A DNA stretch of 64,000 bases, taken from assembly GCF_006345805.1 (NCBI RefSeq), contig NC_043001.1, forward strand, positions 94,178,001 to 94,242,000, written 5' to 3'. The notes under the pieces are model-generated. The model saw nothing but the letters and a program-made list of their open reading frames with translations. It was not told the origin of the DNA and ran no database searches. Origin of the DNA: Octopus sinensis. Lineage: Eukaryota. Position numbers and translations under genes: made by a program. The stretch's first letter is position 1. Every line of letters begins with the position of its first letter. Positions 105 to 59,949 of this stretch are shown here, piece by piece.

Positions 105-573
105 AATTTATATATAGAGGGCATTATACATACATGCCAGACGGCATTATACATACATGCCAAACGCTAAGAGGGACAATCAGTCATTTCTACCAAAAAT
201 ATTACTAATCCCACCGAATGCAATTTTTCAAAGTAAGACATTTAAAAATATAGACCTGTATCACAGTGATTTCATACTTACGTAAGTATGAAATCACTGT
301 GATACAGGTCTATATTTTTAAATGTCTTACTTTGAAAAATTGCATTCGGTGGGATTAGTAATATTTTTGGTAGAAATGACTGATTGTCCCTCTTAGCGTT
401 TGGCATGTATGTATAATGCCGTCTGGCATGTATGTATAATGCCCTCTATATATAAATTAATATGTCCAATAAGAATAATTATTTTCGAAATTTTTTCTCT
501 TATGAGGTTTTTACGCTATCTACCTGACAATTTCTTGTTAAGTTTTCCTTATTAAGTAGTTGCCCTTAATTGC
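105..573. mobile_element. Fold-back element: perfect 354-bp palindrome (105-458) plus ~115-bp single-copy tail, between (TA)n tracts
   Basis: Arms are reverse complements around the centre 281/282 (…atacttac|gtaagtat…) with no spacer. The tail ends tgcccttaattgc before (TA)n. Confidence 0.8.
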
Positions 574-1174
574 TATATATATATATATATATATATATAT
601 ATATATATTATATATATATAGATGTATACACACACACACATTATATATATATATATATATATATATATATGACTCAGAGTTCAATTTTTATTTGTAATAC
701 ATACGAAGAAGAAAAAAATAAAAGTATCGCTGATTAATAGGTTGAAGTGTTTCAGACGGATCATTTCATTAAAATATATGGGAAAACGGAGAGAAAATAG
801 CAGGATAAAGGAGTATCATCAGCATTAACAAAAAGAATTTCACCAACAGGCCAAAAATATAGAAGACACAAACACAGGCACACACGCAGACGCACACAGA
901 CACGCATGCACACACTGACACTCATACGTAGACACACGCCTAAGCGCGCTCACACAAAACCAGTCATACACACACATACGCACAACAAATGATATCTCTT
1001 CAAATAGAAACTAATAAGAAAAAAATATTTCATACAAAATACAAATTATTTGGAAGTTATATTTTATTAAAATGTTTTCACGGGAAACGAGATAATATCA
1101 ACAGCAATGGACACTCAGGAATATGTGCATGCACATACAACACATTCATATGTACAGGTTATAAATGCAGGCAT

Positions 1175-2000
1175 TTATATATATAATATATATAGTATAT
1201 ATATATATGTGTGTATACATATATATACATATATTATATTATATATATATATATATATATATATGTAATATATATGTATATTATATATATATGTGTATAT
1301 ATATGTATATTATATATGTATATATATATGTATATATATATGTATATATATATGTATATATATATATGTATATATATATGTATATATATTGTATATATAT
1401 ATGTAATATATATTATATATATATGTATTATATATATATATATGTATATATATATGTAATATATATGTATATATATATGTATATATATATACATATACAT
1501 GTATATATATAATATATATATATGTATATATATATATATATAATGTATATATATATTATATATTATGTATATATATATGTATATATATATGTATATATAA
1601 TGTATATATATATATATACATGTATATATATATAATATACATATATTTATATATATAATATATATAACATGTATATATATATATACATATATTATATATA
1701 TATATAATATACATATATTATATATATACATATACATGTATATATATATATATATATAATATATATATACATGTATATATATAAATATACATATATTTAT
1801 GTATATATATATATATATATTACATGTATATATATAAATATACATATATTTATATATATATAATATATATACATGTATATATATAAATATACATATATTT
1901 ATATATATATATATATATACATATATTTATATATATATATATAATATATATATATATGTGTGTGTGTGTGTGTGTGTGTATGTGAGTATGTATGTATGTG
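1175..2000. repeat. Degenerate (TA)n/(TATG)n/(TG)n low-complexity array
   Basis: Almost only alternating T/A with sporadic G/C; source of the spurious Y/I-rich ORFs. Confidence 0.95.
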
Positions 2001-3059
2001 TGTATAAAATACACACGCATATATATGTTTCCGTACGTTCACAGAAACGTAAGCATATGAGCGATACTTGGACGGTATCTGATATTTTTTGGGGGGCAGT
2101 CTGAGAGCGTGTGTTTGACAAGTAGGGACTTGAAAACATTATCCGATGCAATGCGTTTAGCAGATAACAAGTTACAGGCCGTTGGCATATAGCCGGAAGT
2201 CAACCTAAGTGCTACAAAGCGTAAAAATGAATTATATTGCAAACGACGGAAGTAGACAACGTGTAAGAGAGAAAGAAAGATAATAACTTATGCAAACAGA
2301 AAAAAGAAAGAAGGCCCTATATATTGTTTCTACGAATATTGATGATTATTTCAGCTATTGATATCTTCACAGTTTCCCCCACCAACTTTCTAATAGATAT
2401 TTGAATGAAAAATCAGATAAAAAAAATAAAAGAACAGCTATCGTGTTCGGTATAAATATAGCAAATAACGTCAGTAATTTTAGCATACGAGAACAACTGT
2501 GGCAGATATTGCAATAAACGAACATGAATCCATGACGTAGAGAAAGGTTTTTCTTTTCTCTCTCTTCACATGGATTTATTTACGTCAGTGCTAAAAAAGA
2601 ATATATGAATATAAGTAATCATTACATGAAATATTGAAAATAATTTCAGATTTCCCATCTCAGTTTAAGCAATATGCAATTTCTAATATGTAATGCATCT
2701 TCATAATACTTTATTGAAATTGTTTTGTGTGTACATTTAATTTTCTTTATATCAAAGAATGTACAGTTATTTTTTTTGTTTACCTAGTGAATTGCGATCT
2801 GAATTCGAGTTTCGGTCATACATTTGAAATCCATCCTTAATTTTACATTAACTTGGTGTTCTTTTTCGCAACTTTCTTCATTATTCAACTGAAATTTTAA
2901 AATAACGAGGAATCTGAAATAGATATAAATACATACATACACATTTACATACAAACATATTTATATACACACATATGTATGTATGTATATATATACGAGT
3001 GTGTGTGTATGTATGTATATATATATACATATAAATATATGTATATATCATAAACACTG

Positions 3060-56280: not shown

Positions 56281-57419
56281 AAAAATAAAAGATCTGAGAG
56301 ACCATACTTTTAAACACTTTGTAATGCAACGCCAACATAAGTGAACATTTCTCAGTATAAAAGCTGTGGAGGGCAATATTCCAAGCCGTGCTACCATAGC
56401 TGTCACATAGAAGACACTTCTGATGAGGAAGATTATCAGATTTTCAGTATGTGGAGGCTACCGGAGTAGGTGGAAATAACACGATAGCAGGATAAAAGAC
56501 TTACTACTAAGAATGCACACATAAACATAACCAGATACCCATCTTCCGAAAAAATATATCATTGCCTATGACGAATCAAATGCCACTAAATGTACGAATG
56601 ACAAGCCTTGATCTCAAATACTTCATCTATCGAAACTTTTGTCGAATCACTAAGTTAGGGAGACGTAAAAAATAACTAACACACCGGTCGTCAAACTGCT
56701 GTGAGTACAACCACGCTCAAAACTACATACTTACGTAATAGGTACATATATACATACATATTAACATACCTACATATCTGTTAGGTCTAATTATCACCCG
56801 AAGAAACACATCTACACCGATGGATACTCGTAAACCATTTATCAAGTATCTCTCACGTGAGGAAACAATTATAGTGATTTTTAAAATTTTCGTATCTGCC
56901 ATCTTCCGTCTCTCATTAACCAAATATATATGTATATATATGTATACACACACACATACACATATATATTTATTTATATATATATACACACACATATATA
57001 TTTATTTATATATATATATATATATTGGATTCGAAATTCCACCACAACTACCGACGAAGGCAGGAGAGTAAATCAGCTGAAGCGTTGTGGTAATAAGAAA
57101 GTAGTTAAGGACACTTATCCATCCATTGTAAATAATACACGCTCAAGTATATGGAATATAATTAAGACTCCGTTCAGTTAGGTATTAAATTGTGGTACCT
57201 TGCTAGGTCGGTATCATCCGTACACCCAAACAATATCAATTTAATATTGAATGTGAAGACTCCGTGTAAGGGTGTTGTACCCGATATTCCTGCCGTGTGT
57301 GCAGACAACGTAACCCAGCTAAACGAAGGCTTCCGCTCGTGGTAATTCAGACGTATATTTTTGTTAAAGGTAATTTCTGTAGAATTTGCGATGTGCAGAT
57401 TCCAAGTTAGGTAAATAAA

Positions 57420-57800
57420 ATATAAATGAGGAACAAAGATTTATTGGTGTTAATTCGTACTGGTGGCACGGCCGTTTCAGGCAACTCCCTTAATTGATTA
57501 ATGAAGACATTTCATCATTTGAAAGAAAACATAAAATTATAGTACACTTATTTTCTAAACCCATTCTGCCAAAGATATGACAAAAAAACAAACAAAAAGA
57601 AAACAAAATCAATATTTTGAATTGCATTATTCATATGAAAAAAAAAAATATTTGTATCATATATGTTTGAAGTCTATGCGGTCAACTAACGAGAACGGTT
57701 TCTATCAAACGAGGTAATGTTTTCATTAATCAATTGAAGGATTTGTTTGAAATGACCGGAATGATTTGACACCTGTACATCTTTGCTATTCTTTATATTT
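57420..57800. mobile_element. Old inverted pair of the hammerhead-bearing family seen at 53925-54060
   Basis: cggccgtttcaggcaactcccttaattgattaatgaagacatt (-) faces aatgttttcattaatcaattgaaggatttgtttgaaatgaccg (+). Decayed core tcaa-CTAACGA-gaac…gttt-GAAA-tgaccg-GA-atga. Confidence 0.65.
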
Positions 57801-59949
57801 CATATATATATATATATATATATATATATTGATACTTTGATAGGTTTCGGCCATTATTGGCCCAGGCCATGTCTAACTTAATAGCACCACCTGGTGAATT
57901 AAGATAGATAGATAGAGATAGATAGATAGATAGATAGAGATAGATAGATAGAGATAGATAGATAGATAGATAGATAGATAGATAGATAGATAGATAGATA
58001 GATAGAACGTAAAAGGAGAAACAGAGAATTTGCTAAATTTGCTAAACAGAGAATATATATATATATTTATATATATATATATATATATATATTATATATA
58101 TATATATATAATTATATATATATGGATCTGAGTTTCCAATCAGTTAAATTTTCCTAAGTTCAGTCATGAATCGTTAGTCCACATCAGACTGTGGTCTGCT
58201 TATTCACATTGCCATGTCTGTTCCCAAGGCAGTTTAGAAAGTGCCCATTCTATATAAATAAATTGACTCATTGTGATTTCAATGATATTGTGAACATTAC
58301 ATTTCAGCATCACACGAAATTTTTACATGAACTATTACCGTTAGATACTAGACAGGCACCTAATCCCTTTGCTAATATATATATAAGTTTAAATAACTAT
58401 TGTTATGCTCAAATGTATCACCTTTCAAGTGCGTAATTATTTAATTGTCTGTAGAATAATTGTTAGAATTGTTTTGTACATCAAAACATTTTACTAGGAT
58501 TCTAACGTGTATAGCTAGCAAATTCTCTGTTTCTCCTTTTACGTTCTATCTATCTATCTATCTATCATCTATCTATCTATCTATCTATCTATCTATCTAT
58601 CTATCTATCTTTCAATGAACATGTCTGTCTATCGATTTATTTGTTTGTCTGTTTGTTCATCACCCTCTCTACCTCTCTCCATTTCCCGTCTCCAATTTTT
58701 CATTCACTAATTCTTCTTATATATATATGTATATATAGATATACATACACACACACACATACATATATATATATATATGCGTGTGTGTCTGTGCGTATGT
58801 ATATATACATATATATATATATATATATATATATATATATATATATAATATATATATATTTATATATATATATATACATTTATCGATAGTCATTATACTT
58901 ACACTAAATATACGCGTATGTACATATAGATGCATACATATATAGTGTGTGTGAATGTGCATACACACACACAAGCACACGCACAGACACACACACACAC
59001 ACTCACATATATATATATATATATATATATATATATATATATATATATATATATATATATTTATACATATATATGAGTCTGTGTATATAAGGTGTGCATA
59101 AACCTATCTCCATATGTACGTATGTTAAATCGATTTAATACAAGCTAAACCGATTTCAACTTCTATAAATTGCTGCAAATCAAAAGTCACCAAAATCATA
59201 CCCACCGTTTGACTCACTCATTTATATTTGTCTTTGATCTTTGCTATTTGGTAATATCATTGGAATTATTTGTGTGAAGTAAAGCAATTTATGTTGTACG
59301 AAAGTTAATTCATACATATTTAAGATTTATGTGATGGAAGGTAACAGGCTTGCTTTATAGTTACCAATGGAATCTATTGATGACCATCTTCTTCATACGT
59401 AATTCCTTTGATGATTGCACATTGCAGTTCTTGATATGCAACTTCACTAGCAAACGGGACATATAAAATATTTCACTGGACCTGTCAGTTATATCTGTAC
59501 ATGAAGTTTTTTCTCCTCGTAATATTGAGTGCATTTCATTTCCATAAAGTGCGTCTATCTCTAAGAAGGGAACCGCAAGAATGACAAATAATAGTGTTTT
59601 CCATTTGTGAATTGGTGGGGCTTTTCCTCTTTAAAGCGAATTTACATGGTCTTTGAATTGTCTCTCTGCCCCCACAAATTGTGGTTAAGATTGATGTAGG
59701 TGATCTTAGGAAGAAGATAAGAGAAACAATATCCTATACTCTAATAGGCAAGTCTTTTCAGTGCATGTCTGTGTAGTCCTATTTTTTAAATGCGTTGTAC
59801 GTGTATTCATGTGTGTGTTATGTGTGTACATACATATGTGATCTGTACCTCTCAGTCCTAGCGACGCACGGTAAAAATGGCTGCAAGTTAGACAAGAACA
59901 TTTGTATACAGGCAGAGTGTCGCTAAGCCCCTGCAAACCCTGCTGTCGG

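Follow-up and report, generated by a model that had tools for sequence, protein, structure and literature searches.

Hairpin-plus-tail elements in a 64-kb octopus window as probable two-armed insertions of hammerhead retrozymes and Penelope-like element ends, with a spliced nucleolin-like gene copy between one pair of arms

Metazoan retrozymes without long terminal repeats (LTRs) are described with monomers of 170–400 nt by Cervera and de la Pena (2020, PMC7229834) and of 51–972 bp by Li, Clavereau and Pollet (2026, bioRxiv 10.64898/2026.07.22.740005), and the available text of both proposes Penelope-like elements (PLEs) as their mobilisers. According to the accessible sections of Frangieh et al. 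(2024, PMC11167929), the protein of an anole PLE is a predicted dimer that in vitro nicks AT-rich DNA on both strands and extends each of them, and reverse transcription starts at two internal sites of the RNA, the interval between which corresponds to the genomic tail. Here we analyse a window of 64 kb of Octopus sinensis DNA (the whole stretch NC_043001.1, 94,178,001 to 94,242,000; G000:C5:94178001-94242000), taken from a 2.72-Gb AT-rich, microsatellite-rich genome. A first-pass annotation of the window had noted hairpins with a single-copy tail beside (TA)n runs, often with hammerhead motifs, and had read them as products of a PLE/retrozyme system. These elements are probably truncated two-armed insertions, either of hammerhead monomers or of the 3' ends of PLEs, for which Neptune-type PLE enzymes are the likely agents, and one pair of arms encloses a spliced copy of a nucleolin-like gene.

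The elements were grouped into families labelled F1–F9, each sampled at 16–30 loci, the best-scoring among 40 candidates per search. For F1, F5, F6 and F8 together, 103 loci remained after removal of 12 duplicate or overlapping ones, and 141 of their 149 3' ends fell at two fixed sites, 77 at site A and 64 at site B, with 8 elsewhere; the intervals scored as A or B span 6–10% of each monomer's length. Measured from the predicted hammerhead cut, site A lies at ~+265 to +300 and site B at +145 to +200 in these four families, with an A–B interval of ~95–117 nt. Among the inverted insertions with both ends scored (n = 51), 44 joined an A end to a B end, 7 had one odd end and none was A+A or B+B, counts in which the F1, F5 and F6 queries included the tail, forcing an A end and making B+B invisible, and to which the unbiased but small F8 query set contributed 4 A+B insertions and 4 with one odd end. 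The inner junctions, or apices (n = 61), were scattered along the monomers, several of them on short palindromes, and in most inserts the two arms halted at unlike inner positions. F3 (16 loci, by eye) and F9 had the same end geometry, and in the older F6b many B arms were eroded; across F1, F3, F5, F6, F6b, F8 and F9, site A lies ~235–300 nt past the predicted cut and site B at ~+40 to +195. TA-flanking, scored as (TA)4 no more than 30 nt from the end, was found at 121 of the 149 ends; the background is 3.9% of positions for 150 kb of arbitrary sequence and 8.9% for the window. At 11 of 16 A/B sites (background 4–21%) a CCU precedes an AU run, usually after a predicted hairpin in the non-coding families.

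These end counts bear directly on the possibility that the elements are miniature inverted-repeat transposable elements (MITEs) or fold-back DNA transposons inserting at TA. Long inverted repeats and TA flanks would suit that explanation, as would F2, which has target-site duplications (TSDs) and a nearly fixed inner end. Symmetric fixed terminal inverted repeats with a fixed internal length were, however, not what the loci showed, since the A and B ends differ and the apices vary; head-to-tail arrays, hammerheads, a link to PLE open reading frames (ORFs) and a spliced messenger RNA insert (all below) also speak against it, and in F2 itself the duplications are of 8–13 bp and the two ends differ by 54 nt. 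We regard a MITE origin as highly improbable. The first-pass annotation had contrasted the fixed tail end and wandering apex of PLE insertions with the fixed ends of MITEs, and the former pattern is the one observed, in the form of two asymmetric fixed sites; its call for a comparison of (TA)n adjacency with background is answered by the excess given above.

Several of the families are built of monomers. Elsewhere in the genome 480-nt F1 monomers follow one another head to tail, with >6 units in some 3-kb loci; the tandem or partial-tandem monomers of F5, F6, F6b and F8 measure 560, 525, 531 and 549 nt. Head-to-tail arrays of >5 monomers were found for F1 and F8 and partial tandems for F5, F6 and F6b, and no tandem arrays were seen for F2, F3 or F9 in the genome loci sampled. 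There is one type I hammerhead per monomer, on the strand whose 3' ends face TA runs. With monomers of one array tallied separately, cores were intact in 79/86 copies of F1, 34/42 of F5, 17/21 of F6, 24/30 of F8 and 20/33 of F9, and in 46/49 copies of the PLE N1 described below; the F6b core was mis-indexed by the script and left unscored. Stem I carries compensatory changes in F5 (32 and 6 copies), F6 (17 and 4) and F8 (11 and 4), and in F3 a hammerhead motif was present in one longer genome copy (L111). Monomers of F1, F5, F6 and F8 have a GC content of 0.32–0.35, under the 45% limit for non-LTR retrozymes, and no ORF of at least 170 aa was found within monomers. Their predicted folds are 60–65% paired and, as circles, beat both shuffles and the opposite strand (z between −3.6 and −9.3, from 10 shuffles of each). 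Judged by sequence, F1, F5, F6 and F8 are non-LTR retrozymes as these are defined in the available text of PMC7229834 and 10.64898/2026.07.22.740005. Contigs from four presumed-RNA runs covered the monomer of F1 and showed some A>G differences that genome copies seldom or never have; lacking matched DNA they were not used, and the script for the A>G comparison carried a one-base offset across part of the monomer.

Within the window the bare hammerhead core heptamer is not enriched (23 against 22.3 in shuffles), so it is the genome copies that carry the argument for hammerheads. Strict three-stem hammerheads did exceed shuffled sequence, with one in the window against a mean of 0.03–0.04 (60 and 25 shuffles); in the 150 kb of arbitrary sequence the strict scan found 0 and a relaxed scan also 0, versus 0.3 in shuffles. 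The single strict case is the type I hammerhead at 42816–42880 (minus strand), with an intact core and three stems. Two others that had been called good fell short, the one at 39437 reading GAGA for GAAA and the one at 54028 (minus strand) failing on stem II.

An origin of the arrays that needs neither circular RNA nor two-site priming can also be considered, namely that the monomers are minisatellites derived from pseudo-LTRs (pLTRs), amplified by unequal crossover, with inversions arising through DNA repair or snap-back of complementary DNA (cDNA). Insertions duplicated together with a TA spacer show that DNA-level duplication occurs, and the apices on short palindromes would suit snap-back; local amplification is favoured by Li et al. 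(10.64898/2026.07.22.740005) and self-priming was proposed by Arkhipova et al. (2013, PMC3846280), in the parts of these texts available. Snap-back nevertheless predicts a shared outer end or random ends, and no second fixed site. The arrays are dispersed on many contigs and end exactly at A or B, and the inner stops of the two arms differ in most inserts. On this evidence we consider the minisatellite origin improbable.

A GIY-YIG ORF in the flank of one locus led to the retrieval of N1, a young and abundant element of 4.4 kb with open 784-aa frames that match RVT_1 (E 3.5e-8) and, below the cut-off, GIY-YIG (E 3.8e-4). Its CxxxxCxxC linker and C-terminal endonuclease (EN) would make N1 a Neptune-like PLE, in that this motif and domain order match the Neptune/Nematis definition, a CX2-5CxxC linker preceding a C-terminal EN, in the accessible text of PMC8557442. 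It also bears a U3-A8 minimal hammerhead, a variant known from the available part of PMC4209133. When its ends were collected with a protein query blind to ends, and 8 read-through matches set aside, 43/43 lay at two sites 34 nt apart (+64 or +93–98), 42 of them TA-flanked, and all 7/7 inverted pairs were A+B. A second autonomous family, N2, contributes F7 to the window (38288–38588, plus strand), a 3' end or pLTR piece cut off within its ~38-nt tail and with TA on both sides. F7 is joined to the C-terminal PLE ORF of N2, 36–44% identical to N1, in 5/20 loci. The link to PLE GIY-YIG ORFs that the first-pass annotation had anticipated is thus present, and an autonomous PLE obeys the same end rule as the hammerhead monomers. 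N1 and N2 both have the inverted or partial-tandem ends and the one-sided 30–40-bp tail of EN-bearing (EN+) PLEs, with tails of 34 and 38 nt, and the same geometry with longer tails is seen in F2 (54 nt), the retrozymes (88–117 nt) and F9 (longer). No alignable DNA is shared between N1 and the retrozymes, and tblastn with N1 found no joined reverse transcriptase (RT) and GIY-YIG ORF in the loci of F1, F2, F3, F5, F6, F8 or F9; these seven families appear to behave like PLE cargo, not like autonomous PLEs.

In F2 the two ends lie 54 nt from each other, the 5' end is nearly fixed, and a U3-A8 minimal hammerhead-like motif has an intact core in 24/41 copies; 8–13-bp direct repeats flank it in 11/25 loci, a TA run adjoins an end in 6/25, and no extension of its sequence past the tail was found. 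It is likely a non-autonomous PLE derivative of the TSD-making type. In the window F2 occurs at 12033–12300, as a hairpin with a 54-nt AC-rich tail, the U3-A8 motif and a ~16-bp imperfect flanking direct repeat, without (TA)n, and at 18750–19104, with a 10-bp TSD and a decayed hammerhead core. F9, with a length of at least 2 kb, carries its hammerhead 40 nt ahead of site B and shows no ORF over at least 1.8 kb upstream.

These observations are consistent with a mechanism in which a PLE enzyme with RT and GIY-YIG domains would cut a (TA)n target on both strands, with one cDNA primed at site A of the RNA, its partner primed at site B, and both running toward the 5' side of the RNA. Each site would be recognised through a hairpin with CCU and an AU run behind it, and the tail would represent the A–B interval. 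A multimeric or circular RNA template, copied for several laps, could give arms of up to >6 monomers; the two cDNAs would then be joined head-to-head at variable points, and where both halted at one short palindrome a perfect hairpin would result. Dominance of one cDNA would leave single-armed or partial-tandem inserts. That the hammerhead cleaves the transcript, and that the transcript circularises, is carried over, by analogy, from the retrozyme literature.

Several results weigh against this reading. At the gathering score, an Rfam scan of 17 loci returned no hammerhead; the best Rfam hammerhead match was HH9 (20 bits, E 0.004), so that Rfam supports these motifs weakly, and the hammerhead at 42816 had no Rfam match. 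Across the window likewise, no hammerhead reached the gathering score among the 150 matches listed, the top matches being sub-threshold microRNA (miRNA) models. Position 17 of the F5 hammerhead is U in 39/42 copies, and U at this position gives a weak cleavage triplet. The tails of the non-coding families exceed the 34–38 nt of both PLEs, and no autonomous partner similar to F1, F3, F5, F6, F8 or F9 was found. To these are added the query design for F1, F5 and F6 and the small F8 set described above, and the selection of the CCU motif after inspection of the data.

One insertion in the window holds host sequence. Positions 30478–31405 (plus strand) match nine exons of a gene at G000:C27:13772999-13742120 with 87% identity overall, and the removal of eight introns, seven with GT-AG borders by script and the eighth by eye, reduces 30.9 kb to 928 bp. 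The copy contains a stop and indels; its ORF remnant encodes an RRM whose closest relative among solved structures is nucleolin (E 3.8e-11). It starts within the parent's first matched exon, directly after promoter-like motifs that we take to be CCAAT and GC-rich boxes, and ends at the end of exon 9. On the left lies an inverted F6b arm (30409–30481, minus strand), whose outer end is ~35 nt short of site B and adjoins (TA)n, and on the right a direct F6b arm (31404–31584, plus strand) that ends at site A against (TA)n. The orientation of the copy is that of the A arm, that is, of its hammerhead strand (50% by chance), and divergence is alike in all parts, the arms being 86–93% identical to their family and the insert 87% to its parent. 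A contig of run X16, which may be the assembly's own sample, bridges the flank, the left arm and most exon joints with few differences.

Together these features suggest that an A-primed cDNA jumped to a nucleolin-like transcript and so gave rise to 30478–31405, and such a template switch is the probable origin of the chimera. It could instead be that the hairpin inserted first and that a nucleolin-like cDNA made by a long interspersed nuclear element (LINE) was taken up at the hairpin's apex afterwards, either through insertion or during repair of a break. Palindromes are prone to breakage, the window contains LINE RT fragments, and the copy is the only filler >40 nt among 138 adjacent inverted arm pairs (overlapping loci included; three rows, one event). 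Of the marks of a LINE-made processed pseudogene, intron loss is seen in the copy, whereas neither poly(A) nor TSD is present at 30478–31405 and its 3' end lies inside the gene; the similar divergence of arms and insert, and the shared orientation of insert and A-arm hammerhead strand, also argue against later capture, which we consider unlikely, if less so than the minisatellite origin. Weighing against a template switch are that the retrocopy is a single event, that its left arm ends short of B, and that the right joint is covered by a separate X16 contig with only ~29 letters on the short side. The fuller proposal, in which circular retrozyme RNAs carry two hairpin-CCU-AU signals, a dimeric PLE enzyme of Neptune type uses these to prime both target strands, and the enzyme can jump from such RNAs onto sense spliced host transcripts, is offered tentatively, as somewhat less than an even prospect.

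Other observations were made at this locus. Ligation at the hammerhead site was rejected as the origin of the chimera, the junction lying at monomer +83 and not at the cut, and two presumed-RNA runs gave nothing over the chimera and were not used. A 13-nt exact match links the parent gene just past the end of the retrocopy (L231, G000:C27, ~13742075-13742060) with the F6b retrozyme just upstream of the right joint; 0 of 1499 arbitrary windows reach 13 nt and 7 of 1499 reach the alignment score. As an explanation of the right joint this match would require a later deletion, and it was left unexplained. An intron-containing nucleolin-like paralogue was found at G000:C5:45701000-45706000 (L233), with one exon at 87% against 96% for the C27 gene.

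The fold-back with a single-copy tail was present at all seven sites named by the first-pass annotation, from 105–573 to 57148–57803; two of its boundaries were too short, F8 starting at ~39087 and the F9 tail reaching left to ~57148. At 105–573 an F1 retrozyme insertion has an inverted arm running to site B, a direct arm running to site A and (TA)n on both sides; both arms halt at one palindrome, that of hammerhead stem II, which forms the apex of a perfect 182-bp hairpin. F3 (12890–13085) is a hairpin with a ~90-nt tail and TA runs on either side. The F5 insertion (25031–25852), with B and A ends, is present as two copies including a TA spacer, and the monomer's hammerhead lies outside this copy. 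Entire insertions duplicated head-to-tail with the TA spacer were seen at 25001–25914, L177/L178 and L042/L043, likely through unequal exchange between TA runs. The F8 insertion (39087–39606, hammerhead at 39437) has its left end at site B beside (TA)n and its right end truncated at +104, and F6 (42565–43195, minus strand) is a partial tandem of 1.2 monomers whose 3' end is site A against TA. F9 occurs as a fragment ending at site B (53922–54154, minus strand), with an intact hammerhead core at 54028 and a decayed stem II, and as an inverted insertion (57148–57803) with a long-tail arm on the left, a B end at (TA)n on the right and a mutated core. The end of another repeat (57030–57136) adjoins the F9 tail and a TA run, and the same repeat lies next to N1 in L225.

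The four terminal motifs noted in the first pass were located at 561, 25392 (also 25830), 31568 and 38568, the last of them within a tail and not at its family's usual end. Adjacency to (TA)n held for F1, F3, F5, F6, F6b, F7 and one end of F8 and F9, but not for 12033 and 18750, which have direct-repeat flanks. Nor are all families unrelated, as had been supposed: the F6 and F8 monomers are homologous (73% over 151 nt, E 2.5e-13), 12033 and 18750 belong to a single family (F2), and 53922 and 57420 to another (F9). The PLE/retrozyme reading is supported by the tests of ends, apices, ORFs and hammerheads, with the amendment that not every family targets (TA)n and that some are related.

Further features were noted. 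Single (TA)n tracts stacked with different PLE and retrozyme families were seen in L040, L104, L256 and L017. A hairpin at 17890–18130 (119-bp arms, 97% perfect) abuts the simple-repeat end of a common repeat resembling short interspersed nuclear elements (SINEs); it was rejected as a further family, being single-copy in the genome. At 19317–24346, 990-bp terminal inverted repeats, 99.6% identical, enclose broken transposase fragments, presumably Tc1/mariner-like from their translation, and a stretch related to this element lies at 33525–34273. A tRNA match above the gathering score (51 bits) at 46465–46536 is possibly a SINE head, with partial repeats at 51556–51606 and 53339–53405. The window also holds a 400-bp direct repeat, 73% identical and interrupted by trinucleotide runs (9943–11101), and a LINE-type RT fragment (49892–50758, RVT_1 E 1e-22).

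As regards what these results would mean, the mobilisation of retrozymes has in print been inferred from co-occurrence and pLTR similarity, whereas the present loci add a PLE-type insertion footprint with fixed, countable start sites. Because of these start sites, and of the young PLE copies with 784-aa frames in the same genome, partner and two-site priming are open to in vitro tests. The nucleolin-like insert, provided that a single event made it, shows that the machinery can retropose host messenger RNA from a sense template. Under the fuller proposal above, processed gene copies would arise not only by LINE and LTR retroposition but also by a third route through retrozymes and PLEs, whose signature would be inverted retrozyme arms set in (TA)n; this would conflict with the antisense-template model of PLE copying. 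Palindromes of this kind would be mis-annotated as MITEs or miRNA precursors. In a literature search to which subscription journals were mostly closed, and with supplements of PMC8557442 and PMC11167929 that may hold these families or end counts, no report was found of cephalopod retrozymes, nor of any spliced retrocopy flanked by the ends of retrozymes or PLEs.

In comparison with the systems already described, and within the available text of the sources cited, the hammerhead families resemble metazoan retrozymes (PMC7229834; 10.64898/2026.07.22.740005) in being non-coding, low in GC, tandem, self-paired (here by prediction) and equipped with one type I hammerhead. They differ from those of PMC7229834 in their 480–560-nt monomers, and the available text of the two sources does not describe inserts with two arms in inverted order, ends fixed at A and B or (TA)n as a target, the words 'inverted' and 'microsatellite' occurring 0 times in the accessible text of PMC7229834; no pLTR homologue was found for the window's retrozyme families. 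With EN+ PLEs of the Neptune/Nematis and Poseidon types (Craig et al. 2021, PMC8557442; Frangieh et al. 2024, PMC11167929; Cervera and de la Pena 2014, PMC4209133) they share partial tandems, an inverted 5'-truncated copy and a tail at one end, as well as two RT start sites, AT-rich or microsatellite targets and minimal hammerheads including U3-A8. N1 and N2 match every part of that description that was tested; the non-coding families, by contrast, have no ORF and tails of 88–117 nt versus 30–40 nt, and strict A+B pairing is counted here. The retrocopy recalls the PLE-framed host genes of Adineta vaga (Arkhipova et al. 2013, PMC3846280), in which a host gene lies between PLE-type terminal repeats and is moved in trans. 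The Adineta vaga gene keeps its introns and has direct pLTRs and a TSD, whereas the insert here is spliced, 3'-truncated and set between inverted retrozyme arms in (TA)n. LTR-mediated retrocopies made by template switching (Tan et al. 2016, PMC5131818) likewise have a messenger RNA copy fused into an element whose pieces are discontinuous, the joints showing short similarity, and it is the flanks, here hammerhead retrozyme arms in place of LTR retrotransposon sequence, that set the present case apart. Retrozymes, PLE tails and a proposed partnership between the two are thus already published, and the elements of this window represent a variant of known systems for which the support is good; what most deserves following is the spliced retrocopy, which is likely PLE-made.

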